DNA of 64,000 nt from Schmidtea nova (Eukaryota), in the NCBI GenBank assembly GCA_044892505.1, contig CM097883.1, positions 183,706,001 to 183,770,000 of the forward strand. Reading direction: 5' to 3'. The translations under genes and the position numbers were made by a program. The notes below the pieces were generated by a model. The model saw only the letters and a program-made list of their open reading frames with translations. It was not told where the DNA came from and did no database searches. This document shows positions 39,401 to 64,000 of this stretch, one piece after another; position 1 is the first letter of the stretch, and every line of letters starts with the position of its first letter.

Positions 39401-41647
39401 AAAAACGAATTACGAAACTAACAGTTTATTGCAGATAACAATTTATAGAATAAATTTAATTTTTATTGAAACAAAAAGACATAACAAAATAAGCTTTATT
39501 TAACTTAAAATGGAGCAAATTACAAAATATCATTGAATAACTCACCATGAACGTACATACAAGAATAAAGATGTTCGTCTGTGAGGCATAAAAAATATTC
39601 AGGATAATAAGATCCCAAGCATAAATTCCCAGAACGAAAACCCGAAAAATCCTCTTGCATGATCTTCCCAATAATTTCCTTAGCTAAAATTCAAAATCAT
39701 AACATTAAACTACAAAATGTTAAATTTACTTTAGTTGAAAACTCCGGTGAAAAATTGATGTATTAAAGATTGGAGCGACGATTGAAATTGATGATGACTC
39801 TCCCTTGGAAATCTGAACCACTAAAAGGAGAAAACTGTAATTATATAAATAATAATTTAAATGTAACTTACCAGTTTGAGAATCAAAATTGAGGGGAATC
39901 TCATTACTAAAAATAACTACCTAAAATCAATAGTTATATTATAGAATTTAAATTGGTATGTTAAAAATTACCCAATAGAAATCAAGGAATTTTGCTTACC
40001 CGTCTATATAGAATTTCCTAAAATAGGGGGAACGTTGAGGGTTTTGAGGGAATTGCGGTTGAGATCGGATTTCCTAATTAAAAATTTAATTCGAAATTGG
40101 AAATAAAATTAGAATTGATAAATAAGAGGATTATCAGTAGAATAAAATTAACATACAAATTATAGAATGTATATTATTACCGTTGCTAAGGCCTCGGCGA
40201 ATTTTTGAAAAGTCCAAATGATAAATTTCAATAAAATGTTAAAGATTTATAAAGCAAGATAGACAATAGGATTAGGATATAAATCAAGCTTCTCTAAATT
40301 TTAAATATGGAAAACACAAAAATTTATACAACTTCGAATATAATAATTAATTTGACAAAGCTAACATCGATTGAAAGTCCCCGAATATATGTCTTTTTAT
40401 AGGAAGCATAAATCACCGAATTGAGTTGGCGATGGTATGTTTGAGGGTAAACATTGTAGGCAATAATGAATGTGTGAATGGAAATAATTTTGTGTTGGTT
40501 ATGAAAAATCGATAAGTGTTCATCGATCAAAATGATTATGTTTTATTGATTTAAAATGAATATTTGGAATTGAATGTCAAGTGACGATTGGAAGGGGTTA
40601 TTATTGTATAATTTTTTAGATGTCCGAAATGAATATAGAGCAGAAATTTGAAGAGATACACAAACTGATTGTGGAAAATGCCCGCCATAATCGCCGGGTA
40701 GACCAGTGTTTCGCCGAGATGGAGAAGGCGAAAACTTCAAATACGGATGCGTTACAGATCATGACATCTCGGATGGAGAAGTTCAGAGCGCGATGCCGGG
40801 AGATGGAGTCGACGTGGTCGAACAAAGAGACCGTCGACAAACTCCGCAAACAAATCCAGATGCTGTTGCAGCAGGCTGCGGACGACGCAATGAAATTGCG
40901 GGCGTGCCGAGTCACAATCAGGGACTTGGAAACACAAAATGAACGGCTAAGATTGGACAGTGGTATCATTGCCGCCGTCCTGCCAAAACCACCCTGTCTG
41001 TCCCAAGAGTTGTTCCCAGTGAGGGTCGAGGAACAGATATTGTCACCTCCTGTTCCCGCCAAAACAGCCAGGCAGAAGCCCAATAAAGGGGTGAGAGCTC
41101 GCCGAAGACTTCGGCAGGAAGCGAGACTGATGGGACAAGTCCGCAAGGAATCTGTAGACATAATAGACATTACTGCTTTGTGATTTAATGGACAACGAGT
41201 ATCCTATCGTGTATTTATTTGTTTTTTCTTTGTAGTTGGTGTTGTTTTTTTTGGTAACATTAAAGTGTTCTCTTGTTTTTTTTTTATTTTTTTTTATTGG
41301 GTTGAATGATTGAATGCAATAAAGCAAGGTATAGAATAAATTGAGTAAAAGCAACTGAGGTTCAATAGTAAAGGAAGTACATGAAGTTTTCTGAAGTAAA
41401 TAATACCTTGGAGGGACAGAAATGGGCGAGAAACCTTCTATCGGTAGCCTTTGGACCCAGGAGATATTCGGTCAATCATAGTTTCGTATTGACGACGCTC
41501 ACTGATTGCGAATACCCACCCACTTCTTACAGTACCAACGTTACATAGTGACGGGTAACAAGATGGTAGTTTAAATATTTTATGTGTTGAGTTGTTGATG
41601 AGAGCCATAGTAACGTCAAGGTCATATTGACGATCAACAACCCACCA
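36443..41647 (+). repeat. 3' LTR of element 1 (5.2 kb)
   Basis: TGTTGGGC start, CCACCA end, blocks shared with the 5' LTR. Confidence 0.85.
40620..41183 (+). CDS. LTR-encoded 187-aa protein: coiled coil, Pro-rich segment, basic patch, C-terminal SIM-like motif
   Basis: Intact GC-rich ORF in AT-rich LTR; RARRRLRQ, VDIIDIT; AATAAA at ~41317 and ~41336. Confidence 0.75.
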   Translation: MSEMNIEQKFEEIHKLIVENARHNRRVDQCFAEMEKAKTSNTDALQIMTSRMEKFRARCREMESTWSNKETVDKLRKQIQMLLQQAADDAMKLRACRVTIRDLETQNERLRLDSGIIAAVLPKPPCLSQELFPVRVEEQILSPPVPAKTARQKPNKGVRARRRLRQEARLMGQVRKESVDIIDITAL

Positions 41648-43115
41648 ATAATCAGAATTTTGTGGAAAATTTTTTAGTATTTGGAAATTTAAAGAATTTA
41701 AAAGAATTTAGTAGAATTTTTGGGGGAAAAAAATTTTTGGTTAAAAAAAAATTTTGAGAAGACGTTATCAGAATTTGTAATTTCAATTCGAAAAAGAAAA
41801 AATCAGGAGAGCCACACTGAGCGTAAGGATTTTCTCATTTTGTTTTTATGTTATATTTATTTCATTATATATGCGTTATCGGTATGGGAGGTCCAAAAAG
41901 TCATGCCCTTTGGACATCCCATGTCAAAACCGTTTTTTTATTTGATTCATTTAGTTATTTTTTACTTTTATTATTTAGGATGTATCAATTTGTATATTGA
42001 TAATATTATATAGGATTACATCTAATGAATTTTTTTTATTTATTTTTTATTTATTTTTTATTTGTTTTTTATCACAAATTCTCATAATTGAAAAATTTTA
42101 GTAGTCCAAGTAAAAATTATTAAATAAATAAATTTTTTGCTTCCGTACCCCTCGAAGCCTGTTTCTGGCCTTGTGCCGATCGGGTGGAAGTAGCCTGAGC
42201 GGATCGCTGGTTCGATTCGTAATCGATCAGCCCATATTTTCGAGTCCAGGTGAATAGCCTAAACATTCATGATCACTTCATCCTAACTGGGGAACAGTGG
42301 CTTGGCCAAGGGCAAGTTGTTATATTAATGATATTTGATTTATAATAAATGTAGTTTATCTGAATTTATAATTTCTGACATATCCATCATTTAAAAATTA
42401 AGACCACATGTAAACGTAAAGACGATTTTCTCCAGTAATGTCTTTTCCATTATGAAAAATAATTTATGCAAGAATAGTTTACTCGTCGTTCGCCTTCACT
42501 CTCACAACAACTGTCATCTTATCCGAAAACGCAAGAAAAATGGAAGCTAATATTGAAAAGAGAATCGTTTGAAATAATGCTCAAAGCTGGTATAATGATC
42601 ACGAAATGATACGTAATATGAAGACAAGTATTGATTTATCTGAATTAAACCTCATTCATCATCTAAATAATTTTGAGAAATTAGATTATTCATAAAATTT
42701 AAACCATGTGGAGGGAAACGCCTAATGTATAATGAAAATGCATTAAAATCTGAAAACGAATCGGTGACACGTATACTTTTATCACTAAAATAAAAGAGGA
42801 AATTGTAACAATGAAAATTTATTTGGCAGTCCATTAGAGAGAAGAAACAATCCAAAATACTAAATATAGAATTCCAAGGTTTGGCAAATAAATAATTCCA
42901 GTTATGTAAAGGTTGGTAGAAGGACTGATTTCCAAAAGCTAGATTTTTCCTAAAAATACAACAGTAACTCACGAAAATTTTCAACGAAATAAAATTCTTA
43001 CCTGAACATGTAAATTGAAGAAATTCAAATTTTTCTTTTTGGAAAATAATCGATCAATATCCATATTATATGAATTCATCCCATAATATAAGAAATCAAC
43101 CAATCAGGTTGATTA

Positions 43116-43310
43116 ATGTTTTCTTTTAAACAAAATAAAAGGGAAAAGAAAAAAGACGTTGATTTGAATCAAAGCCAAATCACTCAAAACGGAAATTTAC
43201 GACTTGATATAAAGTTTGCAACACCTATTGAGGAACCGGTTCATGTAGATATATTTGGAGTTTTTGAAAATGAAGTTCAAATTACTGCCAATCGAACAAT
43301 ATTGGTTTGA
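43116..43310 (+). pseudogene. Polinton/adintovirus major capsid protein C-terminal fragment
   Basis: GNLRLDIKFA..IEEPVHVDIFGVFENEVQITANRTILV. Confidence 0.8.
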
Positions 43311-43434
43311 GCAGAGCTCAAACAGTACTAGTTTAAGCAAAGCTTAAACATTGTTGGTTTAAGCAAAGTTCGAACAGTATAAATGATCAAAGTTATTATT
43401 ATTATTATTATTATTATGGAGTAAGATTTTTTAA

Positions 43435-43794
43435 TTGATTAATTATTTATTTTTAATTAGTTCTATTCAGGTATTACAACAAGGTAAAAAACTATTGGGA
43501 AATCAATTTATTGGAGTATTTCCGCTAGATAAAATACCTTATTTGAAAATGAATCAAGCCATCATTGTAAATACTCAGACATCTACGTTGGGCGGTGAAC
43601 ATTGGATTGCAGTTTATGTGAAACCAGATCAAATACATGTATTTGATCCCTTTGGATATTATTATCCTAATTTACTTGTTAGAAAACTTCAAACTATCGG
43701 TAAACCTATTGTGTATAATAGAATTCGTTATCAACATCCTTTAACAATCACTTGTGGTGAACATTGCCTTGCATGGTTGAAATCAATGTTATAA
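43435..43794 (+). CDS. Polinton adenain-like cysteine protease
   Basis: FIGVFPLD, IVNT..GEHW, FDPFG, Q....TCGEHC catalytic motifs; true start uncertain. Confidence 0.9.
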   Translation: MINYLFLISSIQVLQQGKKLLGNQFIGVFPLDKIPYLKMNQAIIVNTQTSTLGGEHWIAVYVKPDQIHVFDPFGYYYPNLLVRKLQTIGKPIVYNRIRYQHPLTITCGEHCLAWLKSML

Positions 43795-43826
43795 ACAATT
43801 TATTTTAATAAATTTTATTTGAAAAA

Positions 43827-44228
43827 ATGTCTTGTTATTTTATCGATTTTTACGGTTATAATGAAATGGGTGGAACAACAATTAAGGAATTATGTATTAT
43901 GAATGTCAATAATATTTTCACACCACAGTATTATATATACAGTGATTTATCTTTATGGCCTGATCGTATAGAATCGTTTGAAGGACAAGATTATTTTTGC
44001 CCAAAATGTATTATGGATGATATTACAGATAAAGGAGCTATTTTCTATATTACAGATAATGAAAAGTTGCATGTTTTGAAGAAGTATTTCCCCAAATTAA
44101 GATTAATTAAATATAATTTTAAAGAAGTTGAATATGTTCATGAAAACATTTCATGTCCCTATAAAGATCATTGTATGTGTGCCTATAAAGGGTGCTTGTC
44201 TGCTGTTGTAGATTATTTAAAACAATAA
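43827..44228 (+). CDS. Conserved small Polinton ORF (PW-like)
   Basis: FIDFYG..IKEL N-terminus, C-terminal CPYKDHCMCAYKGC; position after the protease. Confidence 0.6.
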   Translation: MSCYFIDFYGYNEMGGTTIKELCIMNVNNIFTPQYYIYSDLSLWPDRIESFEGQDYFCPKCIMDDITDKGAIFYITDNEKLHVLKKYFPKLRLIKYNFKEVEYVHENISCPYKDHCMCAYKGCLSAVVDYLKQ

Positions 44229-44605
44229 ATGTATTATTTTTATTAATTATTATTATTATTTTTATTAAATATTATTATTATTTTTATTATTATTAATATT
44301 AAATATTATTATTTTTAAACACAAAGGCATGACCAGTGCGTGATAAAGACATGATAAAACATGTGATTTCATGATGTCACATGTCTTTGTCGCGATACAA
44401 AGCAAGTATCGTGACGTCAAACACATAAACAAAGGTACATTATGTGTGCAGTATGTGTGTACATATTTGTCTATCCTATCTCGATTCTGATTGGTCGGTT
44501 AATAAAATTCATCTTTATATAGTATATACTTGCATTATTTCGTCACTTTTTACATTAAAATTTTAATTCAATTTTTAATCAATTATCGCAATCAATCTAT
44601 CAAAA

Positions 44606-45740
44606 ATGAATAATGTGAATAATTTAAATATGTCAAAACGGATCGCTGGAGGATTAAACGGTATAATTATTATTTTTATTTTATTATAATTATTATTTAT
44701 TTATTCTAGCTGTTAACATATCCAATAATATGGTCGGACAATCTACAAAAGGACTCAGAAATGAATATTCGAATATTGGTAAAATTAATAATTTTTTTAA
44801 GTTTCTTTATTAATAAATTATTTTTTAGAAAATTATAACAATTTCAATGGTGTGGATATTGATGCACCGATTAATGATATGAATGATGTCCCGGTTTATG
44901 TGAATGATGCATCTGTTAAAGATGATGTCCCGATTGATACTATTAAAGGATGCTCTAATATAGCGAGTTTTAATGGAAAAAACTCGAGGAAATGTAATTT
45001 TTTATTTTTTTATATAATAATAATATTTTTATTATTTTTAATTAATTCTTTTATTATTTAATTTATTAATAAAATTTTTATGAAGAATTTTTATTTTTAA
45101 ATAAAATGAAGAATTTGTTATATTGAAATTATTATAATGAACTGAAGAACAAGATGAATCATTATGAAGAATTTGTTATGATGAAATAATGAAATGAAGA
45201 ACAAGATGAATTATTATAGCGAAATGAAGAACAAGATGAATTATTATGATGAAAATTATGAATTATGATGGAAAATAAATAAATAATTTTATATTGAATT
45301 TTATATTAATTTACATTTAACATATTAAGTAATATATTTAATACAATTACTTAATATGTTAAATGTAAATTAATAAATGTGATATTAACAATATGACTTT
45401 TGATGATATTATTTATATTTTTATGACAAATTAATGAATAACTAATGATGATATTATTTTTTTATGACAAATAATGATGAAATATTTTAGATTAATATGA
45501 TGAATTTAGATGAAAAAAAAATTAATTATTATGATATTATTCTGTTTTATTTTTTTTATATAATTATGATAATCTTTTTTATTATTTTTAATTTTTATGA
45601 TCGAATAAAAAAAAGATGACGAAATAATAATATTAATCAAGAACAATATGACGAAATAATAAAGAAATATATTATAATAATTTATCTTTAACATATTAAG
45701 TAATATATTTCAAACAATTACTAAATATGTTAAAGATAAA

Positions 45741-45776
<36 letters not shown>

Positions 45777-47810
45777 ATATTAAAAAGATGAAAAATTAAT
45801 GATTATATTATTTTTTAACTATTTATAATTATTTAAATTTTTTATTTAATATTCAGGCTCAATATATTACAATTTTTGTAATAGTCGTTTCCATAATGAT
45901 TATAAAGAATTCTTTCTTTCGCATAGGACTCACCTTTCCCAATTAATGCCTTCGAAAAAATGTCTTTTTAATAGCATATATGCTAATTATATTACTAATA
46001 ATATTAATAATAATAATAATAATAATATTAACAACAACAACCTTCATAATACAATTAATCAAAATACTTTAAATAATTATAATAATCTACAAAATAATAA
46101 TAATAATACAACAAATACTATTAATACTATTAATACAAATAATTTACAAAATACTATTAATACAAATAATTTACAAAATACTATTAAAACAAATATTATA
46201 CAAAATACTATTAATACAAATAAAAGAAAAAACCAAACATTAATGGATTCAGTTCCTAAAAAACTTATAATAATCGACATCAGTGATGATGAAGATGAAA
46301 ATATTATTAATAATAATAATAATAATAATAATATATCTCTCATCAGTGATGATGAAGATGATCATATTTATAATAAAAGTAACAATATTATATCTGCCAT
46401 TGACGATGACTTAATCGTCGTCAATGATGATGAATTTGATGAAATGCTCAATATTATAAATAATAATAATAATAATCAAATTGGTATGGGTATTGTTGAA
46501 GTTACTTCAGACTTGAACGATACCCATTTTATTATAAAAATGGACGTTTCTAATTTATTATTAAAAACGGTCTCTGTGCCGGATATATTGTTAGAGAAAT
46601 TAAACTCCTATATAATTAAATTAAAATCATCCAAAATTCAATTTTGTCTCAAGGTAGAATTTGAGAAAGATGATGAATTACAATCTTTTGTAATCTCAAA
46701 TTCTGCCAGAGAGTGGAGTGATACCTTTATTGAAGAAGGTATCACTAGTTTAAATGAAAAAATTGTCCAAATAAACGAAAAAGGGAGTAATTGGACAATC
46801 TCCAAAATCGAATATATAAGTTTTGTAGTAACAAAATTTTCAGAGATTAGTAGGCTCAGCGGCAGCAGTTTTATCGAGACTCCTAATACCTTAAAAAACT
46901 TAAATTGCCTAGTTAACGTCAACAATAGCGATACATATTGCTTTCTTTATAGTTTTTTAGCTATAGTTAAATACGATAGTATAGAACGCCAATACCGGCA
47001 TAGGGCTACTTCTTACGATCTTTCCCAACTGATATTTGACCCCAATGACATGCCCATGAAATTAGTTAACATTAAGAAATTCGAGAGGCAAAACCCCGGC
47101 TACAGTATTAATGTCCTTACCTATGACGAAAAGGCCCAAATAGATGTAAGTGATAGCGATAATGATGATAATGTCGTTCTTAAACACCCTTTTATAGATA
47201 TAGTGTATCGTAGTAAAGTAGTCGGGGCAATTCCTATAAATTTACTTCTTTTGGAGAATAAAGATAATTTTCATTATCTCGCGATTACCGACTTGAATCG
47301 CTTTTTTAAATTGCCGAAACAGCACCATCACCCCAGTTAGGATTCGCAGCCAATGGTGCCCTCGTTGCTTGAATGGCTTTAGGAACGACGAAGCCTTTAA
47401 TCGTCATAAGGGTCTTTGTACCAAAAATCAGTTGGGTACCACTCTCTACACATTACCAAAAAATAAATTTTTAGAGTTTACTGATTGGAAAAAAACAGTA
47501 ACTCCTCCTTTCGTAATATATGCTGATTTCGAAGCAATATTAACAAAAGACCCTGTTCATTACCAAAAACATATTCCTATTGCTGCCGGTCTCCTTCTCA
47601 TTAATAACTTTTCTGGGGTGAGAATTTATAAGTCTTTTGTAGGGTTAGACTGTGTTGATCAATTCCTAAATGAAATCGAGTCAATCAGTAGATATATAGT
47701 AACGCCCTATTATTTTAAAAATTATAAAAAACGTATGACGATCACTGCTACTCAACAGCGCGAATTTGATAATAGCACTAATTGCTATTTATGTAAAAAA
47801 CTTATTTATG
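44606..47810 (+). pseudogene. Polinton protein-primed DNA polymerase B, N-terminal half, with predicted spliced 5' exons; frameshift near 47340, truncated near 47810
   Basis: KGSNWTISKIE, SGSSFIETP, NVNNSDTYCFLYS, KFERQN..SINV, HYLAITDLNR, WCPRCLNGF, PPFVIYADFEAIL, CYLC. Predicted exons 44606-44660, 44710-44778, 44829-44993, 45857 onward. Confidence 0.88.
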
Positions 47811-50088
47811 TAAAAGAACAATATAAAAGGAATTCGAAGCAAATGAAATAACACTAATAAAGAAAAATTGAGAAATAATAAAAGGAAATAAAACTAGATT
47901 AAAGCAAATAATAAATTTAGAACTATTAATGATAAAAACAAATAAAAAGAACGAACAATCACACGAATGAATAATAAAAATAATTATATATTAAAAGAAA
48001 ATAAAACCCAATTAATTATAATGAACAAATTCCTAAAAAGGAAATATTAAATAAGAATGATTCGTCAATTTAACGAACGCAACTCGAAGCTGATTGGTCG
48101 AGCCAACCCGTCCAAATAACATAAATAGCGACGGCAATCCCAGTTCAAAAGCATTTTTTTGTATTTCAAGCACTTTTTTAGCATTTGTTAATAAATTATT
48201 TTGAGCTTCAGTATCATTGTCATTGTACCAATCATCAGAAATTTTACGTTTTGTGGATATCAATATTGTAAAATATAATTTGTTGTTATTTTATAAATAA
48301 TTTGATAGCTAAAATCTCTCCTCATTGATATGGTGAGTCTCGGGCGGCTTGTTGAGTAGTTCCCAATTTGCTGAACCTACTGTTCCAAACTGAGAACTAA
48401 GGTCAGACAGTTGGTATAGTCACTGAAGGCAGTTGTAAGGAGCTAGAAATACTAGGATTTGAATATTTTTTTGGGAATCCCTAGATCATCGAAGGATCTA
48501 TTTTCGAGGGTAAACTACTAGTGAAAAAATGATATGAAATGTCTGTAAGCGTAATGAGTTGTTATTAAATAGATGTCGTGAGAGCATTTGCAATATTATT
48601 ATTAAAACATTAGAAATTCTATCGTGAAATATATATAGTAAAAATTACAGCTAATGTCGAGAAAACAAAGCTTCAACATTGACATGCATCAAGTCGAAAA
48701 TCAGAAAGCATTAGTTACACGGAATTTGAGCTAAAATACGGTAGAGATAATTCACTTGAGAAGTCGTTGTGGTGCAAATGGGAAATATAAAGTGCGGATT
48801 GCTGAAGCAATTATGAAATTTGCCCAATTATCATGACAATGAGCGTCACAACTGTTCATAGAGAAATAATGAAAAATTGGATAATGGTCGAGATCGACAC
48901 ATGAAAAATAATTATCGGTAAAAAATCGGTAAGACATCAAATAGACAGTAATTATAATAATAGCGACTTGGCTGATTGGAGAGATGGGGAAAATTACTTA
49001 GTAATTACACACGGGCAACAATTAGGTTGAAAATCCATTATTAATAAAAAGAGTCACAATTATAAAAAATTCGGAAACTTTTCATAAAGCCACGAGAATG
49101 TCGCTGTGGTGGTTGTCAACTTTACACCTTAAGATAATAGTTAAAAATAAAATTAATATAACTAAAATTAAAATTAAGGTTTAATAGTTAACGTGGAGTC
49201 GTGAAATGTTTTGATTGAATACTTGAATGTATTAAAGAAGGAAATTAATGTTAATATATAGTTATATGTTATCACTTATAATATCAAAAACACAAAACTT
49301 ATATAAAATGAGTATATTACTCTGCAGTAGCAAATGTGTATTAATAATTTTCATTCTTCTATTACAGATAATGACTAATCAAATGAACTTATATGAGGTC
49401 ATAATAGTGAAGGAGGAACCACAGTACGTCCTTCACCGCCCGAGATGAGAAAAGGAAAAATTACGGCAGTCGAACTAGGGCGTAGACGAGGACTAGAACC
49501 CTTCTCCACCGAGTGTGAATTACAATACAAGAGAGTTGTTTGACTAGGAAGCAGCGAATGATCTTTCCGAGCTGGAGTGAATTATGCCAACACACCAGAA
49601 TTTTTAGTACACTAAAAGATTCCGGGTACTATCTTCGAGATGGTCAGCTATGATCCTACCGAGAATGATCAACAGAAGAATTCTGTATACATGGTTGAGT
49701 TACATTTCCAAAGAGGAAACATCGCTAAGTGACAAGGGACGGCCGTTAGCAGCATTGATAGATAGCGTAATATAATCAATGTTCATAGTTGTGAATAAAG
49801 CTTTCTTTAATAACTGAGAAATGAATCATTGTAAATCTACCTTTTTTTAGTTTTGCGTGACGATAAAATCTTTTGGTTCACTCAGTTCAGTAATAATTGA
49901 TTAGATATGTAAAGTAAGAGTTATGGAGATATAAACACCCAAAAGTAATATAGAAGGATAAATGCATAACCGGAAATTTTAGAAGAGTTATTCTTTTTTC
50001 ATAAGTTTAATTTTGTCATTTGCCAATTGAGACCAATTGAGGAAATGTAAAAAGTTGAAGCGTGTGGTGTTAATCATGTTATGTTAAT

Positions 50089-50131
<43 letters not shown>

Positions 50132-50555
50132 TTGTTTATAATTTAGAAAATAGCACGCATAGTTAATGGCAAAAAGTTAATAAATTTAGCGTCAGAAAAT
50201 AATATACAATATTCCTGATCTATTGTCTTAGAATAAATGAGATTAAAAAATGAATATTAAACATAAAGACTTGACAGATGGCATCACATAAAATTTTTTC
50301 ACAATTGGAATATTGAAATAAAAAGTCTAGTTCCGTGGAAAATTTAATAGAAGACTTTTGGCAATTATCTTTAATACTATATCATAGTAACGAAGATGAT
50401 CCTTTACGCAATGTTGGGGATAATTTTTTAACACAGTATAACAATTGCTAACCAGAAAGCTAAAAACTTTATCCCTTAATATTAAATGAAAATATTTCCA
50501 TTACAATTTCAATATAATCTACAGTTATAGTTACATAATAATAATAATAATTTAC

Positions 50556-50821
50556 CTGCATCCTAATATTAATTTACAATTGCGTTTTGATAACTCAAAA
50601 GCACAAGCTCTTCCCAATCCAGAAGTAGCACCAGTAATAACAATTGTTTTTCTTTTTAGTGCAATACATTTGCATTTTTTACATCGAAATGATCGGAACC
50701 AACGAATTAGGAAAATACTAATTCCAGTTCCAAATACACCAATTGAAATATAATTATAATAATCTTTTCATAATTCGTATAAAATATATATTTTAAAGAG
50801 AAAATCCTTACTTGAATCCAT
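50556..50821 (-). CDS. Host short-chain dehydrogenase/reductase (RDH11-14-like), exons 1-2
   Basis: ATG at 50821, GT-AG intron 50764-50811; product MDSNYYNYISIGVFGTGISIFLIRWF...KTIVITGATSGLGRACAFELSKRNCKLILGCR, then donor at 50555. Later exons not found. Confidence 0.85.
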
Positions 50822-51568
50822 TTTAGATTTTCTTAATATAATATCTAGATTTTTAAATTCTTTCTTTATTAAAACGATTTACCAATTATAAAGTTGAGAG
50901 ATTTTAAATATTATAAATTAGATTTTAATAATTAAATATTAAGTGACCTGAAATTACATTTAACTAGTAAAAAAGTAAAGAAAAAAATATTTAAGAAAAA
51001 TCAATTTTTAAATAAGTTGCCTAAAATTCTGGTTATTGTTAAAAATTTACAATGAGCAATTGAGCTTCGTTACCGAAATTGCTCTTTATTGAATTGGGTT
51101 CATAGCTGCTAGTAGAAGGTACTACGTATACTTTAACTTTTTAGAACATACTTGTTCATTAGTTAGTTTTTCTTGAATCGAGAATATCTAGCGTTTACCC
51201 CAATTTAAGCATTTGATTTCATGAATTTTCCAAATCTTTGATATGACTGTTGGGTTGATGAAGGAACGGATAATGGCGAAAAGTAAACAATTAATCATGA
51301 GAGAATAAAGAAAAAATGAAGAATGTAAAAATAATAATAAAACAAATAAAAAATGACAATTAACAATAAAAGCACAATTAAAACAAAAATAAGCAGTGAA
51401 AAAGCGAGGAAAATGACAAAATATGTGAAATATGAGTAAAAGGCAAAAAATAAAGAGAATAAAAGAACAATAATAAAAATAATAACGAAAAATAATAAAA
51501 TAATAACGAATAATACAAGATAAAATAAATTAATAAGAAAATCGAGCGTTTAACCAATAAAAAGGTTA

Positions 51569-51612
51569 CTCGATTCTGATTGGCTGCCTGAGCGTCGATT
51601 TTAATATATAAG
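51569..51612 (+). promoter_or_regulatory. Y-box (CTGATTGG) plus TATA
   Basis: ctcgattctgattggc...tatataag, followed by a GT-AG intron around 51783-51854. Confidence 0.5.
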
Positions 51613-52921
51613 GAAGCGCTCAGGTCAGTCAATTTAATGTCATTTATATCAACATAAAATCACTCTGCAATTTTCACTCGCACAAGTATCCACAGTCAAG
51701 TACGCCATTATCAGTTCAAGAAGAATTCAACAACGCTCGAGGAAGAATCGCTGAAATATTGTGCATAAATCAGAAGGAAATTGTAAGTAACTTGTTATGC
51801 CAAATATAAATTTTAACCATAAATCATATTTCGTTTTCATTAATTGTATATAGATAATGCGAGAGTTCGGCGATCCCGTTGATTGTCAGCTCTCCGGGGA
51901 GATCCATCTTTGTTTCGTGTCTCGGCACGGGGCGAAGATGGGTTGCTCCGTAAAGACCTTTTTATGATGGACAGGGAATGAGTGAATGTCCGGAGGCCGT
52001 TGCAGCATCAAAATATCAAAACTACATATAATCCGTAGGAAGCGAAAACGTTGATTGAGAAACCTACTAATTTTTAGAAAAATCCAAAACGGCTGCGTTC
52101 GTTGAAATTTTTGATAAATCTCTAGAAAATATCACAGTAAATCCAAGCGAAATCGTGAGTTTCCATCTAACCGTTGTAAACCAGTTCCTATAGTAGGTGA
52201 AATGCGTTTTGGGTATGAAAAGATTGAAACATAAAATTGATAAAATTCCAGCTCTAATCGTTTACCCATTCCCACCAAATCGTATAAAACTGCCTGCACA
52301 TAATAATTCATGCGATTACATAATTATGCCTAATAACCTCTCTAATGATTCACAGTCAAATCCAATGCCCGAGCGAATTATTGAAAACCCCGTAGATACC
52401 GTCAAGGAATGCGGTAATTACAGATATGAGATAGATTAGAGATTCATCAAATACATGAGTCCTTAACCGACAGCGATTTCGTTGAGAATAGGAAATAATT
52501 ACCGGAAAGGCAATTAGCGATGCTTTCGTAGTTCTTACTAGAGTTCGCAGAAATCTAATAATTGGCCTGAAATTGCTGGCTCCGAGAAAGTAACAATTAC
52601 CGATTGTAAGAATAATGATCATAATTAAATGCTGAACATCTCAAAATTGGTCAATTAAAATAATCTCAATCGAGCGAAAAATCAACATGAAATGAGAAAT
52701 CTAGGGGAGAATGATAATTGATAAAATGGGGAAATTTCGGGAACCTTACCCTACATAAGCGTCATTGATACTGTTCGCAAATCATGAAACATATAATAAA
52801 TAATTAATTCCCCAAATATTACTAAGCGAGTGAATGAGGCGAGAGCGAGGACACATGATGGGGGGCGCGGTATATAAATTGTGAATTACCCATTTCTTGT
52901 ATACTTAGACATTCACGAACG

Positions 52922-53425
52922 ATGTATTATACCGGAATTCAAGTTACAGGACCTCAAGGAGAGACTCGGAGAGAGAAAGATTTCATGGACGAGACGCGGA
53001 TGTACGATACGCACCTAATGATGCTCATGCCGCTCAAGCCGATCCCAACTGAGTTGGCCAATGAGATCCTACACGAGCACAAGGAGGAATTCGAAAGGAC
53101 GGGAATTGCCCCGCCGTTTAGCCTGTTCCGAGACGGTCCATCGGATATCATTTGGCATGGCAGCAGGGAATGGCCGATCAACGTGGATCGCCCTCGCTGG
53201 CCAAACCAGGCGAAATACTTTGTGGAGACTCCCACCGAAATTCCCGGGAGATACCAAGTTTATTATCAAGGCGAGATTCCGCAAGAAGAGTTCCTGAGTA
53301 CGGGACGATTCGTGTTCGCCCCGGCTCCATCTCCAAGTCCGACGGAATCACCATACAGCCCTTCAACGCTTAGTGATGACAATAGCGACGACAGCGAGGT
53401 CGAGATCATCGCCGAATATTATTGA
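52922..53425 (+). CDS. LTR-encoded 167-aa protein with Ser/Pro and acidic tail
   Basis: GC box + TATATAAA at 52861-52878, intact ORF, AATAAA at 53506. Confidence 0.75.
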   Translation: MYYTGIQVTGPQGETRREKDFMDETRMYDTHLMMLMPLKPIPTELANEILHEHKEEFERTGIAPPFSLFRDGPSDIIWHGSREWPINVDRPRWPNQAKYFVETPTEIPGRYQVYYQGEIPQEEFLSTGRFVFAPAPSPSPTESPYSPSTLSDDNSDDSEVEIIAEYY

Positions 53426-53860
53426 ATGTGATCAACTGTACCTGTATTAACCATCAATTATATGTTTCTTTGTGTAGTTGTTTTTCCTCTATTCACTTGT
53501 TTAGTAATAAAAAGTTGTAAAGTAAAGGAAAATAAAAGGTCATCGCGTAAGCACTCCACCGACAGTAAACATGCAATAAACTAAAAGAGATAGTAAATCC
53601 AGTAGCGTAATACAAAACTAAAGTTTTAGGAAATTAGGCAAAAGCACAGGAATAGAAATCTGTTAGGTTAAATGCACTGCACTCGTATACAAATATATAG
53701 CGTTTAGTCCACGAAGGATAGCCACCAACCGAGGAGGCGAAGAGGTGGAGAAAACCGAGTCGTAACCAAGTAAGGGTCGAGTATAAATCCCTCGTTTTGC
53801 GATTAAAAACTAACTCAATAATTACGAATATGCTTCTGTCTTCTAGTAAAGAAAAGAGCC

Positions 53861-54292
53861 ATGGACGAGAAAACTATAGGACAATTGAAGAGGAGACTCA
53901 TTGACCTAGAAAGCAGTTATTTTTCACCGACAGAAATGAAGAAGGTGAAGGAGCAATTGATCAGGGCAACGCAGGTTATGCAGGATCAGAGACAAGAGAT
54001 AGATGCCCTAAAAATCGAACTCAAAAATTGTAGAGCATTCATCACAGAGAAATTCATAACGGACAACCTTAAAAACTTAATTCGCCCGATAACGTTAGAA
54101 AGATGGTTTCCCACACCAGATCAATCAATAAGTACCGAAATCGAGATGCCAATACCGCCAACCACAAAGCGAAAACGAAGGAAATCGCACGCACAACGCC
54201 GACAACAGTTGAAACTGAGTATGGAGGTCGACACCAACAAAATGGTCATCGATGTGAACAGTATTGGAACAACAGGCGTGAAACGCAAATAG
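53861..54292 (+). CDS. LTR-encoded 143-aa coiled-coil/NLS protein, positional analogue of 40620-41183
   Basis: TATAAA at 53782, KRKRRKS, VIDV, AATAAA at 54311. Confidence 0.75.
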   Translation: MDEKTIGQLKRRLIDLESSYFSPTEMKKVKEQLIRATQVMQDQRQEIDALKIELKNCRAFITEKFITDNLKNLIRPITLERWFPTPDQSISTEIEMPIPPTTKRKRRKSHAQRRQQLKLSMEVDTNKMVIDVNSIGTTGVKRK

Positions 54293-54803
54293 TGATTGTA
54301 ATGTTATGAGAATAAATATATGTATTTAAATAAAAATGTGTTGTTATTTGTTAGACGAGAATTGAATTAAATAAAGTAATAACGACAAATGAACTCCAGT
54401 TTTCATCGACTCATAAAACCGTAAATAACAAAGTAACTAATAGGAACAATAAGTATAGGGGCTGGATGGTAATATAGGAAATAGAGAGCAAACACCCAAA
54501 ATGAGAGACCTAAATACAGGGTGAGGAGAGTTACAACGAGACCTTCTATCGGTCAAGCTAGAACCCGAACGATGCGACAAGTCAGGAGTAGTTCTTGTGA
54601 AGGAGCTCACCTGCTGGCTTGCGATCGGCTGTTATACACAATTCCAACGTGAAGGATTAGGGTAATTCACGGGTGTATGAACAGTTAAGTTTTTATGTGT
54701 GTGTTGGACCCTAGAGAGCGAAGAAGAACGTTTTTAGAAAGAGAAAGTGAAGAAAGCTGATTCAGAGTTTGAAATTTTTTAACAGAACACACCAACATAA
54801 ATT

Positions 54804-58223: not shown

Positions 58224-61200
58224 GTCGTAGACAAAACAGGAACCATTGAGAAATCATACTTCCTGAGACACAGTACAAGGGTTGACATAGAATTAACACC
58301 AGAACAAGCGGAGAAAATCAAGAGAAATCGATCGCTATCGTTAAAAAGACAACCACTAAAACCCCTTGGGAAACAATTGTCGGATATTAGTGACAAATCA
58401 AGCGATAAAGAGAATCAACCGAAACCAAAACAAAAAGAAAATAAAAGAAAGACTAGAACAAACAGAACAAAGTCAGAGAACGACGAAATAAATATAACCC
58501 CAGTAGAAACAAAAGTAGAGAACGAAGAAATAGATACCACCCCAACAGAAAACAGAGAGATAGAAAGAATAGAAAACGTAGTAACCCCAGAAGTGGATAT
58601 AGATAATAATAATAATACAACAAGAGATAGCGGATTCGAAAACATGACGGAAGTAGAAGTTAAAAAGGAAGAATTGAGGGAAAAATTTAGAGGCGAACCA
58701 TTCAGTGGTGACGCTAGTAAATTTGACGCGTTCATAAAGGAATTTAGCATATATATAAGAGTATGCCGATGGACAGATGTCACGGTAGTCGAAAGGATAT
58801 CGTTGTATTTAAAGGACAGCGCTCTCGACTTTTATGAAGAAGCGAGAGGCAGAGAAAGAGCACCCAAGAATTGGGAAGAAATAAAAGTGTTTTTACAGGA
58901 AACGTTTGGAATGGCTAAGGTGTTAGACCAAGCATTCGACGACTTTTCAGAAAGGAAACAGAAGAGAAACGAATCCAACGCAGTATTCGCTAGTGAACTA
59001 AGAAGATTAGCTAAACTAGCAGAAGAAGGTGGAAGTATAATAAGCGAAGGACTATTAACCGCTAAATTCGTCCGAGGATTGAGGAGACCAGATATACGAG
59101 CACAGGTGGGATGCAAAGGATGCGTCAACCTGGACAAGGCATTAGAACTTGCAAACAGATTTGAGTTACACATGACGGTCAATGACGCAAGAATCGCCGT
59201 AGCAGCAAGCGAACTAAAGGAAGATAAACCGGTGGAATATGCAACCTTGAAACAATCTATACCAAACGCACATTTATTATTCAAAAGTGCTCCAGCCGGA
59301 AGAAACAACGACAATAACTCGCAGAACAATAACTGGAGGAACAATTCAAGAAACAATGGGAATAACAACACAGGATCAAATAGACAATGTCAATTATGTG
59401 GAAAAATTGGACATTGGCAACAGGATTGTTTCCGAAACATGAGTTGCAACAAATGTGGAAAAAGAGGACACACGGGGAATATTTGTCGAGCCAACAACTG
59501 TTTTAATTGTGGAGGATCAGGTCACTTGGCACGAGAATGTCGATCTGGGAACAACCAACAGGGAAATAGACCAAACAATGGGTATCGACAAAACACGGGA
59601 AATCGGACTAGCCCGAGTAATAACCAGAACAGTAGAGAAATAAGACTGATGCAGGAAGTAAACAGGCTATCAGAAGTGATAGAGGGGATGGCAAAAGCGA
59701 ATCAAAAGAATAACCCGCAAAAGATTAACATGATGAGGAAGACGGAAAACGAAAACGATAGAATAAACGAAGAAAGCAAACAAAGACACTTACAAGAGTG
59801 GCAAAGATTACAACGAGAAGAAGAAAGAGTGAAACAGGAAAGATGGCAACAACAACAAAACGCACCAAGAATAAACATGATGAGAGCATTCAAGAAGATA
59901 AAGGAACAATACTGGTATAACTACGAGAAAACCCCAAAGGAAACAGGAGATGTAGAGGTAGAACGAGGAATAGAAGAAGAAGAGACTCTTGAGAATAACG
60001 AACCAAAAGCCATAGAGGAAGGCGGAAGGAAGGAAGAAACGATAAGCGACAATGGCAACGCGGAAAACACAATTAAAGAGGAAGAAGAGAAACCAAAAAG
60101 GATGCTTGTGATAATGCCAAATGACCACGTATACGCATTTCGGTATGATGCAAAGGAACGAGTAGGAGACCTGATGCGGAGAATAAAGGAACTATGTCCA
60201 GAGAGGCTAGTAAGTAACGTAGAGATTTACTGGAAAACGAAAAACAAGCCCGAGAGAAGAATAAGCGAAACGGACATTTGGGAAGAAATAGGAATAGAAG
60301 TGAAGGAAAACAATTACTTGGTCCTTCGAAAAAGAAAAGAAAGAGAGAATAATGGAAGTGCGATACCCAGAAAAAGTAGAGTACAAGAAATATTTACCGA
60401 GCGACTCAGGATAAGAGCCGAAAAAGAAGTTCTGGAAACGAACCAGTCAGGCGTAAGAACATTACAAGATTTGTTAGATAAGGAAAACAACGAGACAAAC
60501 GAGGACCTAATCAAACCAGAACCAAGCACAGAAGAAAGAAAACGAATACATCTAGCGCAAATCAACATGATGAGAAACATAGGAAATGAATCCTCAGACG
60601 AAGAAGATAGCACAGTGAGTAGTTTAGCGGGAGACATATTACAAGAAACGAGACCGAGCGAAGAAGTTATGGAAGTAGATGAGAACAAAGAAAACGAACC
60701 GGAGATTAAAGTGGACAACGACGAAATAGACAAATTACGGGAAAATGCGTTGGAAGTGATCAGAAATGAGGAGTTCATAGAGGAATCCTCATATAGGAAA
60801 TTTGTGAAATTAGTGTTACAAGTAACTACGACGTTACCACAAGTTGATATATTACGAAATGAAGAGAAGAAGATAGTTGCAGAATATGTGAGCGGTATGA
60901 AACAAGAACCAACGGTAGAATACATAATACAGTTGTGGACGGAAGAAACCCTACCACGGATATGGATCAAGACAACGAATACAAACGAATTATATGAATG
61001 GGTAAGGGATAGATTAGGAAATTCGAACAAAAATAAGTCAATATACGTGGACGATTGGAAGATAAAGGCCAATACATCGCTAAGAGACGCACTTATATGG
61101 TCAGGTGAAGTGACGACGTTAACATTGAGTAAAGAACAAGTGGAAGTCGACCCGAGAAAATGGGCTAAAGAAGCCAATATAAGATTCAAAAATGGGATAA

Positions 61201-64000
61201 AACCACAGTTAAAAACAGCTAAGGAAAGGATATTAAGAAATAATTTAAATAAGTGGTCTGACCAAATAGTAGGACAAATTGAGAAAAATTGGGATAAGCT
61301 GATAACAGAGGAATTTAAGAACGTAAAAGAATGCATAGAAAACATAAGAGATACCGAAAAGATAAGATCGTCAAGATATGAAACCAATAGGTTAATAGGA
61401 AAGTTTGGAAAAACGATGTTTAAGAAAGGAGAAATAACGGGAGTTAAGGTGACAATAAAATTACCAAACGGCGAAGAAACGGAAATACATATAGAAGTGG
61501 GTTGTACGATTCGGGAATTGATGGAAATACTAGACAATACAATCCTACAGAGAGTAAAAGAGCAAAACGACGATGAGTATGAAGACGATATAGTGATAAT
61601 GTACAACGGTCACTTGTTGGAGAAACATGAAGAGATGTGTTTATATAGACTAGGCATATGGGATGACAAGCAGACGATAAGTATCATACCGATGGACGAT
61701 CCAGAGAGAATTACCCCAAGAGATGAAGCAAAAGCGAGAGAATTTCAAGAGGAAATGAACAAAAAGTTGAGACGAATAATGGATATATACGGACAATGGA
61801 GGAGAAATCCGAAATTCGGAGAACTATTAGAAGAATTAGACATGGAGCAATGTCGGAAAACACCTTGCGAGAAGGAGTGGGACGAAATCAATAAAGGTTG
61901 GACGATAAAAGAAGGAAGATATGCGGAAAAGGTTAAAAGAGAGATGGAAGACAAAAACGAACCAGATGCAAAACGGATTTGCATGGTAACACGAACAACT
62001 ATCCTACCCACAGATATAGACGGACCAGAATCAGCAGCCATACAGTTAGGTATGGAGAAAGCAAAAACGGAAGAGTTGATGGATATACTAAAAAGAAATG
62101 CACCACATAGAAGACGTACCGTGAAAAGTCTAGCAGAGTATATCATAGCAAATGTGGAAGACATTGACAGTTTAAGAAAAGTAGTAAAAGTCATTGAAGA
62201 ATACCGAAGAGGAAACGAATGGGTACCAGAACAATTAAACCAGGTAATCCGGAAATGGAGAAACCAAGAATGGGCACAAGAACGACTCGAGAGATTAAGC
62301 CTAAAGATAGTCTACCCACATTACAAGAAGGAGGAAATATGGGTACAACTTACGGAAAAAATTAGAGACATCAAAAAGAAATTGGCCTATGAGACGCCAT
62401 TTCATCTACAGCATCAAGGAAGATCATTAGACGATAACATGGAAATTGGAATAACACCGGTAGTGTTAGGAATTACAAATACGTTAACAGTAGCCGAAAT
62501 AGATGGACACCCACTAATAAGGAAGGAAGAGAGGAGATTAAAAGGTAGTATGAGTACACCAAGCCCACTAAAAGCAATAGCATCTCCAGAAACCGATCGG
62601 AATAGACCATCAACATCGTCAACAGAACAAAATAAAAGGGAACAATCACCAAAATCCTATGATGGTGATGAGATATTAATAGATAGTGATGATGCGTTGG
62701 AAGAATTAACAAAATTAACCATGAGAGAAAATGACAACATATTCGAAAGGATGGAACAACCAACGACATCTCAAATAAATGAAGTAGAAAAAGGAATAAC
62801 ACAAGAGGTAGTAATAGAAGCAGTTGACGAGGCGGAAGGACAATATTATCCACCAATGGAACAAGCAAGAGAACCACGAACAAGTGGAGAAAATCTGCAA
62901 TTGACCCAAGATTGGAATAACTGGCTGATGAATCGAGAAAACGACACAGTAGATAACATAGAAGAAAGAAGCAAAACAGTTAAAGAAATAGGTACGTCAA
63001 TGGATAAACGACCAAGGGGTCGACCAAAGTTAAACCCGGCAGAAATTATACCAAAGACTAGAGAAGAAAGGAGACAGGACCAATGGCAAATACGATTAGG
63101 GAAACTGGGAAAAATAGCAGACACGATTAATAAAGATAATATGCAGATAAAACAAGGGGCCGAATGGATCGAGAAATTACTCATGGAAGTGTTAGGGATA
63201 ATAGACCCAGAATTAAGAAAATTATGGTTACAAGACCAAGTAAGTGAAGGAGCTCGATTGCTACACAACGCTATTTCATCCATATTACCGGAAATAATCA
63301 AAGAGAAGACCAAGGCAACTCAATTGGATTGGGAAGGTGCAAGGAGATTAATAAGAACGCTAGTGGAAGAATCAGAAACACATGCAAAATATCTAGTGGC
63401 ATTAACATATACCATTTATAATTTACTCACATTGAGTAGAGGGAGAACACAGAGAATGTCATTCAGAAGACACGTAAAAGCCACGGCGCACATTATCGAA
63501 GTAGAGATCGAACCATATATCCTAAGAACTGGAGGATGGGAAAGATTTATAAAGGAAAAAAAGAACAAAGACCAAACAAAACCAACACAAAAGAAATTTA
63601 GAGAGTTGTTAAAGGAGTTAGAAAATGAAAGTACGACTATGGAAAACGGGAGGCCAATCACAACTTGGAATTCAGTAATTCTAATGTTGTTGATATGGAT
63701 GATGAGTGCAGAAGGAAATGCAGCGTTTGAAGTGTTCGACTGCGATCAAATGCAGTTAGGAGACAGATACTCGTTAAGAGGAACAGAACAATGTAAAGAC
63801 GCGAATCCAGTTAAGTTGAAAACGTTGAACAAGAAGATATTTTACCATGTGTATCAAGAATCAGATCTGATCCGGACAGAAGTTCAAGAATGTACAGTTA
63901 CTAGATCGAAATTTGCGTTTTACTGCGGCAGATCATCATACTCAGCAATCGTACTACCAGGAACAGATAAAAAACCCGTACAGTTATCAAGGAAAGGATG
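58224..64000 (+). CDS. gag: Giant Gag-accessory-glycoprotein polyprotein (open to window end; first ATG at 58644)
   Basis: Translated by hand, no stop from 58224 to 64000. Capsid-like FSGDASKF..WEEIK..F; CCHC x3 (59388-59540); Ubl-like domains; KRPRGRPK; EPYILRTGGWERF; signal/anchor; FDC..YSL..C..C..YCG. Confidence 0.9.

Follow-up and report, generated by a model that had tools for sequence, protein, structure and literature searches.

What are intact reading frames doing inside the long terminal repeats (LTRs) of giant planarian retroelements? The question is raised by a 64,000-nucleotide (nt) stretch of the Schmidtea nova genome (assembly GCA_044892505.1, contig CM097883.1, positions 183,706,001 to 183,770,000 of the forward strand), hereafter the window, in which three open reading frames (ORFs) lie within the LTRs of Burro-like Ty3/gypsy elements. 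ORF1 (40620..41183, 187 amino acids [aa]) has a coiled coil, a Pro-rich linker, an Arg-rich motif, and a C-terminal [IV]D[IL]T tail resembling a SUMO-interacting motif (SIM). ORF2 (52922..53425, 167 aa) has a small alpha/beta core, an S/T-P-rich stretch, an acidic stretch, and an S[DE]VEI[ILV] SIM-like tail, while ORF3 (53861..54292, 143 aa) has a coiled coil, an Arg-rich motif, and an unconserved VIDV. The ORFs, LTRs, and LTR features given by coordinates are on the plus strand unless stated otherwise. We found that the three ORFs are almost certainly functional genes, that ORF1 and ORF3 probably form one family, and that these two may encode RNA-binding regulators made from spliced transcripts of the LTR itself.

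Purifying selection on three LTR reading frames

A sequence-only reading of the window had described three intact, GC-rich ORFs within LTRs, and its coordinates, lengths, and motifs are exact; GC content is 0.51 in ORF1, 0.52 in ORF2, and 0.42 in ORF3 versus 0.32 in the window. Each ORF has at least 150 matches in the genome. The ratio of nonsynonymous to synonymous substitution rates (dN/dS) was estimated by the pooled pairwise Nei-Gojobori method with a transition weight of 2.5 and Jukes-Cantor correction, the pairs being non-independent, from 43 distinct ORF1 sequences at 50 loci and from 57 ORF2 and 61 ORF3 sequences at 70 loci (40 hand-picked across the identity range, mostly stop-free). 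It is 0.19 to 0.27 for ORF1, 0.15 to 0.26 for ORF2, and 0.20 to 0.32 for ORF3, compared with 0.95 to 2.8 in shifted sense frames and about 1 in the flanks; an antisense shadow frame gives 0.24 to 0.42. Because the first copies had been found through protein similarity, the estimate was repeated on loci found by a DNA motif alone, which yielded 0.17 to 0.22 for ORF3 (9 of 30 loci, with one single-pair bin at 0.67) and 0.18 for ORF1 (9 of 30 loci). When the two LTRs were scanned in sliding windows over six frames, only ORF1, ORF2, and ORF3 stood out and no other window fell below 0.4, although too few copies align at 38843-39740. An additional ORF near 51858 was rejected at a dN/dS of about 0.75. 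Thus, dN/dS is about 0.2 in the reading frames and about 1 around them, which indicates purifying selection on the ORFs; the earlier suggestion that they are fast evolving is not supported.

Changes private to single copies behave differently, with dN/dS of 0.51, 0.82, and 1.94 and with 7, 0, and 12 stops, respectively. Since these changes are roughly neutral, selection apparently operates in lineages that replicate, and there is no clear indication that the host keeps copies up after insertion. The proposed persistence of the ORFs in solo LTRs is borne out: among copies with both ends found, solo LTRs with a 4-bp target-site duplication (TSD) make up 7 of 10 for ORF2/ORF3 (40 examined) and 8 of 9 for ORF1 (20 examined).

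Probable splicing of LTR transcripts to a leader

The sequence-only reading had given two of the ORFs their own TATA box, implying independent promoters. Such words exist in the window copy, but they are poorly kept among relatives: a TATA word within 130 nt of the ATG is found in 2 of 14 ORF1 copies (5.4 expected), 25 of 39 ORF2 copies (10.9 expected; many lie within (TA)n runs), and 10 of 35 ORF3 copies (4.6 expected), and the ORF3 TATA lies inside a predicted mini-intron. Conserved splice acceptors fit better than independent promoters, and fossil spliced copies exist. An acceptor lies no more than 16 nt from the ATG in 14 of 14 ORF1, 16 of 39 ORF2, and 31 of 35 ORF3 copies, as well as in 14/18, 9/10, and 10/12 members of three further LTR ORF families, where 0.5 to 2.8 would be expected across the six families; under a looser rule the ORF2 acceptor is found in 63 of 64 copies. 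The predicted ORF1 acceptor directly precedes the ATG (40610..40619; 14 of 14 family members versus 0.6 expected), and a predicted 77-nt mini-intron precedes ORF3 (53770..53846; donor in 29 of 35 copies versus 7.8 expected, acceptor in 31 of 35 versus 2.3).

Upstream, a predicted core promoter with CCAAT boxes and a TATA at 51605 (51552..51630) is conserved in the 22 copies whose alignment spans it, and ATTGG with a TATA at 350 to 580 nt is also found in two other LTR families. It is followed by leader intron 1 (51783..51853), whose GTAAGT donor is kept in 16 of the 16 aligned copies shown and is also predicted to splice to the ORF2 acceptor ending at 52908. Three copies appear to record such splicing. 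In copy L115, the 1274-nt GT-AG intron between the leader donor (the 51783 site) and the ORF2 acceptor has been removed precisely, and L277 and L275, of a homologous family, have exactly lost introns of 48 and 49 nt (GT-AG and GC-AG) before the ATG of the ORF3 homologue, at the same place as the ORF3 mini-intron. Because these losses are exact, they indicate that spliced RNA was reverse-transcribed. Moreover, the AATAAA words reported after each ORF are enriched over shuffled sequences (ORF1, 11 of 14 copies versus 2.5; ORF2, 35 of 39 versus 14.1; ORF3, 33 of 35 versus 18.8), the copies being related and non-independent. We conclude that the ORFs are likely spliced to a leader transcribed from the LTR's own 5' promoter.

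In the family of L346 and L350, the promoter is followed, at about 560 to 780 nt from the LTR start, by three near-perfect hairpins in tandem, and other families have a GC-rich conserved leader at that place (window 51854-51968 and about 37400-37580). On the minus strand, several consensus-like 5' splice sites occur in window 39500-40000 and at 54608-54616, one of them within the conserved RNA structure described below, so an antisense transcript is possible.

ORF1 and ORF3 as probable remote homologues

ORF3 has homologues of about 30% identity at the same position in two other LTR families (hhalign, 96 to 97%), and direct profile comparison of ORF1 with ORF3 gives 0.2 to 22%. A profile search of 1.84 billion representatives found four remote relatives, apparently chimeric gene models, and the profile built from these four matches both ORF1 (92.5%) and the ORF3 group (97%), the relatives having been found with a profile that held both groups. 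Since this bridging profile aligns to both, ORF1 and ORF3 are probably remote homologues of one family. Their common plan is a coiled coil, a variable linker, an Arg-rich motif, and a variable tail. The Arg-rich motif is present in every lineage aligned for ORF1 and ORF3 and has no counterpart in ORF2; its ratio of nonsynonymous to synonymous differences (pN/pS) is 0.09 in ORF1 and 0.18 in ORF3, compared with 0.73 and 0.69 in the linker. The shared layout proposed by the sequence-only reading therefore survives in its coiled coil and basic motif, which are the conserved parts that the two proteins have in common, but the SIM is not a shared feature.

ORF1, ORF2, and alignment A2 had no match in protein databases, and phage and PDB sequence searches with the LTR ORFs gave none either. 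Two other candidate motifs, a PCNA-binding box (ORF3) and an ATM-site mimic (ORF1), were dropped, as relatives do not keep them.

A structured RNA at the LTR 3' end

ORF1 and ORF3 end 249 and 248 nt, respectively, before a motif near the LTR end, in agreement with the earlier estimate of about 250 bp. Two exact variants of this motif occur 469 and 8952 times in the genome, whereas reversed controls do not occur at all. In the ORF2/ORF3 LTR, the motif begins a conserved structured RNA (54540..54713) composed of a small hairpin, two long covarying stems, conserved internal loops, and a possible pseudoknot; the ORF1-type copy lies at 41432..41566 (alignment A3). The structure lies 170 to 320 nt after the stop codon in each family. 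Scored on a MAFFT alignment of 28 diverse LTR ends, with the hairpin and pseudoknot placed by eye, the structure has compensatory change in 28 of 40 pairs and pairing in 87% of cells, a level reached in 0 of 500 shuffles and against 30 to 41% in slid controls; it was derived from the same alignment that was used to score covariation. The motif hairpin does not covary, the pseudoknot is weak (71%), and single-sequence folding z-scores are modest. No Rfam family matches at an E value of 1. Among 30 loci of the second motif variant, 10 have ORF1 relatives and 3 have ORF3 relatives.

A putative switch to full-length RNA

Proteins of the Rev, Rex, and Rem type bind RNA through Arg-rich motifs. ORF1 and ORF3 likewise have an Arg-rich motif under constraint, and a structured cis RNA lies in their LTRs, where it may act as a response element. 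Complex retroviruses encode a small protein, made from spliced RNA, whose binding to a structured RNA located within or beside the LTR promotes the unspliced form (PMC12789967); the Rex response element (RexRE) lies inside the LTR, the Rem response element (RmRE) overlaps it, and the U3 region of mouse mammary tumor virus (MMTV) holds the whole sag ORF together with rem exon 2 (PMC12789967).

By analogy, the 5' promoter and leader of any LTR, solo or not, would yield short spliced and polyadenylated mRNAs. The product would be nuclear and would dimerize through its coiled coil, the Arg-rich motif of ORF1 or ORF3 would bind the RNA structure near the 3' border of the LTR, and binding would favor full-length element RNA as Rex and Rem do, giving an early-to-late switch. 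The SIM-like tails of ORF1 and ORF2 would add a probable tie to SUMO-modified nuclear partners as a lineage-specific extra. A trans-acting switch of this kind would be needed because full-length RNA must cross the LTR's own splice and poly(A) signals. The promoter, poly(A) sites, nuclear location, dimerization, RNA binding, and early-to-late switch are predicted parts of this model, read from sequence. On this basis, we tentatively favor ORF1 and ORF3 as spliced early genes whose Arg-rich products bind LTR RNA and favor full-length RNA, with SIMs as accessories, a reading that is quite possible and falls short of probable.

Several findings weigh against it. The exact intron losses number three among about 390 family-assigned copies screened, some of which were counted in two families. 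ORF1, ORF2, and ORF3 themselves do not match Pfam REV (PF00424); one remote relative does so over its Arg motif (E value of 0.0013, 19.1 of 22 bits), below the cutoff, and this match is compositional. In relatives, the Arg-motif region matches the bZIP basic region as weakly as it matches REV. Moreover, 9 of the 30 motif-anchored LTRs are of an ORF-less type that keeps the RNA structure and carries no such ORF. These fit supply in trans but also an RNA with another job, such as packaging, strand transfer, or 3' end formation. Finally, ORF2 is not explained by a Rex-like model, since it has no Arg-rich motif.

Alternative functions

The leading alternative is that the SIMs bind SUMOylated silencing factors and relieve or divert silencing by PIWI-interacting RNAs (piRNAs) and histone H3 lysine 9 trimethylation (H3K9me3), with the basic motif as a nuclear signal or chromatin anchor. 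A SIM consists of four residues that form a loosely defined hydrophobic core, flanked by acidic or phosphorylated positions (PMC12751080), and both ORF1 and ORF2 have a hydrophobic core with an acidic or Ser/Thr flank. In ORF1, I-D-[IL]-T is C-terminal in 37 of 38 full-length family proteins with a pN/pS of 0.02 for IDIT, and [IV]DLT is retained at other tail lengths in relatives of about 55 to 61% identity; IDL is also present in 23 of the 25 members of a homologous family. The DDSEVEIIAE end of ORF2 reads exactly as first described, and its tail is kept at V in 47 of 53 copies, I in 46 of 53, and I/L/V in 47 of 53, with a SIM pN/pS of 0.43; its acidic/Ser stretch before VEI[ILV] fits the phospho-SIM layout of PMC12751080. 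In ORF3, by contrast, VIDV has a pN/pS of 0.65, like the linker, the SIM core pattern occurs in 19 of 37 copies versus 12.2 expected, and a conserved hydrophobic core is lacking. The SIM-like tails proposed for these proteins are thus under strong constraint in ORF1, moderate constraint in ORF2, and none in ORF3. SMEDWI-2 silences Burro1, which is de-repressed upon its loss (PMC8532177), but the word SUMO does not occur in PMC8532177. Moreover, a motif as loose as the SIM gives no element targeting by itself, and where another LTR family carries an ORF at the position of ORF2, a SIM is found in 0 of 9 cases. We regard SUMO-directed anti-silencing as somewhat unlikely to be the primary function.

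In a search for the host SUMO sequence, none was found: the 12 PF11976 loci examined are ubiquitin in other retroelements, and a match from a pattern search is not a gene. At these loci (L321-L332), ubiquitin is fused in frame to what, read by eye, appears to be a BEL/Pao-type Gag, after host-like fragments such as Hsp70; the type has at least 150 matches, many in long frames.

Alternatively, the coiled coil could dimerize a transactivator whose basic helix binds an LTR promoter site as in bZIP proteins, with the SIM tuning its activity. Three of 39 relatives match Pfam bZIP_1 over the basic region with E values of 0.002 to 0.02 (best, 0.0019), all below the cutoff, and in 2 of 6 LTRs tested the first TATA is bordered by inverted repeats (P of about 0.03). 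However, the match covers only the basic region, no leucine zipper follows it, the coiled coil is N-terminal, and the Asn of the bZIP pattern is absent from ORF3, while the TATA dyads are not significant in the other 4 of 6 LTRs. We therefore consider a DNA-binding transactivator unlikely.

Host-directed accessory proteins acting on the cell cycle, apoptosis, or antiviral defense are a third possibility, in which case the LTR location would only secure early expression, and the ORFs would resemble the BIR, TRAF, and BCL2-like cargo of Burro elements. Internal TRAF/MATH, BIR-RING, ankyrin, and FN3 genes (PMC6431247) and the precedent of MMTV sag, an LTR gene aimed at the host, speak for this view, which may fit ORF2 best. 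On the other hand, no captured host domain was seen in any LTR ORF, and families about 30% identical all have the ORF at the same position beside the RNA structure; a host-directed role appears quite improbable.

ORF2 is the least readily placed of the three. Its pN/pS is 0.17 in the core, 0.21 in the S/T-P stretch, and 0.55 in the acidic stretch. It has no homologue or fold match in the libraries tried (Pfam, atlas, PDB sequences, and protein databases), and its AlphaFold model is poor, with a predicted local distance difference test (pLDDT) value of 40. At a guess, ORF2 could be a SUMO-linked adaptor with a phosphorylated tail. In another LTR family (L261:640-1209, L290, and L349), a Trp-rich ORF of 190 to 210 aa without a SIM tail occupies the ORF2 position. 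Its 190-aa form scores about 1% against ORF2 in profile comparison, too little to establish homology, with a similar predicted order of elements, and has no database match, only atlas leads below 0.9, and no match at an E value of 0.001 in a viral fold search with its likewise poor AlphaFold model (pLDDT of 52).

It is highly improbable that the ORFs are nonfunctional GC-rich fragments or antisense-frame shadows, as the near-neutral private changes and stops and the low antisense frame might suggest, since private changes are expected to be neutral after insertion, every bin gives a lower value for the sense frame than for the antisense one, the ORFs retain their start and stop positions, and loci chosen without protein similarity show the same constraint.

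Host elements and their LTRs

The elements carrying the three ORFs are of the Burro-like giant Ty3/gypsy type, as judged from their multi-kb LTRs with TG...CA ends and TSDs and from their coding content. Their internal regions encode a CCHC-knuckle Gag, a Monjiviricetes-type (env-like) fusion protein, a protease, and ankyrin, TRAF/MATH, BIR-RING, and FN3 domains, with a Gag-env-protease polyprotein, the BIR domain being that of the related element L098; Burro elements of planarians share this internal architecture (PMC6431247). The ORF2/ORF3 element itself has the CCHC Gag, the env-like fusion protein, a protease, ankyrin, and TRAF, and reverse transcriptase and integrase are absent from its long ORFs scanned. 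Reverse transcriptase is present in the ORF1-type element L102, and an integrase remnant lies at window position 30881.

ORF2 and ORF3 lie in a 3551-bp 5' LTR (51248..54798) with TGTTGG...CCAACA ends. This LTR has two further downstream occurrences in the genome, the third copy being 99.6% identical and a 4-bp TSD bounding the whole, and both ORFs are present in a 99.9% identical LTR pair of an independent insertion. ORF1 lies in the 5.2-kb 3' LTR (36443..41647; TGTTGG start, CCACCA end) of an internally deleted element (23125-41647), and paired 5.4-kb twins of this LTR type are found elsewhere in the genome. The 5' LTR of that element (23125..26297) is unlike the 3' LTR and has no ORF1, despite a matching 4-bp TSD (ATAA). 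Because the two nevertheless have their 5' part and 3' RNA structure in common, exchange of a middle cassette is suggested.

Other arrangements of ORF1 occur outside the window. Tandem arrays at G000:C2:408222092-408244016 and 408554400-408577580, and also in L333, comprise at least 37 units of 1257 bp, each with the ORF1 acceptor, a stop-free ORF1, poly(A) words, and the opening part of the RNA structure. A 190-aa ORF1 relative, stop-free in 149 of the 150 best matches, is found in a very young LTR family (L231-L260, relatives of L217), and many of these matches are paired about 22 kb apart.

The window holds further domains and remnants. The polyprotein at 60096-62504 and 63114-63560 has, by eye, up to four ubiquitin-like segments and a BCL2-like segment, of which only 61431-61700 matches PF11976, weakly (E value of 0.006). 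An endogenous viral element at 1759-3740 is a mononegavirus-type L gene fragment with capping methyltransferase domains (E value of 2.5e-43), and Maverick/Polinton-like fragments at 43159-47851 include an adenovirus-type protease (E value of 7e-6) and, by eye, a possible DNA polymerase region.

Significance and comparison with known systems

Ty3/gypsy LTRs are usually treated as noncoding, whereas those described here contain one or two genes under selection that match nothing in Pfam, PDB, or the atlas, together with an RNA absent from Rfam, all at high copy number. Retroviruses provide examples of LTR-internal genes, and Burro elements have been described before. A full-text search, mostly of titles and abstract openings, found no report of such genes or of this RNA in Burro or other Ty3 elements, although supplements to the Burro genome paper or Repbase entries may annotate LTR ORFs; PMC10680173 and the Dugesia genome preprint added nothing relevant. 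A broader proposition, that a Ty3 lineage independently evolved a complete complex-retrovirus regulatory module in its LTR, with a promoter, alternative exons for a Rex-like RNA-binding family with SUMO-binding tails, and a structured response RNA, is doubtful on present evidence. If it were true, Rev/Rex-like regulation would exist outside retroviruses, and thousands of solo LTRs would be self-contained units that supply regulators in trans to full-length and defective elements. A working module would also show how a retroelement of 25 to 35 kb reads through its own splice and poly(A) signals. The LTR module would then offer defined targets for studying the conflict between transposons and the PIWI/SUMO machinery in planarian stem cells, and annotation of such genomes should treat solo LTRs as potentially protein coding.

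Element-encoded regulators have reportedly arisen elsewhere, as in the VANC anti-silencing proteins of plant transposons. Burro elements (PMC6431247) are the closest in architecture, having in common with the elements described here a CCHC Gag, an in-frame mononegavirus-like fusion protein, a protease, ankyrin, TRAF/MATH, BIR, and ubiquitin/SUMO-like domains, and multi-kb LTRs. They differ in that section 7 of PMC6431247 describes no LTR genes or RNA structure, and the ORF2/ORF3 element is shorter (about 25 kb), with no reverse transcriptase or integrase in its scanned ORFs. Kaposi's sarcoma-associated herpesvirus (KSHV) K-bZIP and herpes simplex virus (HSV) ICP0 (PMC12751080) resemble the LTR proteins, as these are predicted, in being small nuclear proteins with a SIM-like motif and a basic region, but they have no homology to them. 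The LTR proteins have no RING/E3 domain, ORF3 has no SIM, and SUMO binding is a prediction.

MMTV sag, a whole ORF in U3, and human immunodeficiency virus (HIV) nef, partly in U3, are likewise LTR coding sequences that are kept in both LTRs and reached by splicing, as is predicted for the LTR ORFs. However, Sag, a type II membrane protein, targets host lymphocytes, whereas the proteins described here are predicted to be soluble and basic, and the LTR ORFs number up to two per LTR and are exchangeable or absent between LTR types. The likeness in predicted function is to Rex and its RexRE in human T-cell leukemia virus (HTLV), Rem and its RmRE in MMTV, Rec in human endogenous retrovirus K (HERV-K), and Rev and its response element (RRE) in HIV, which have in common with ORF1 and ORF3 a small spliced product (predicted here), an Arg-rich motif, a probable oligomerization helix, and a structured RNA in or at the LTR. 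Sequence homology is limited to the sub-cutoff REV match in one relative, and here, in contrast to the retroviral systems, the setting is a Ty3 element and the genes lie wholly inside the LTR.

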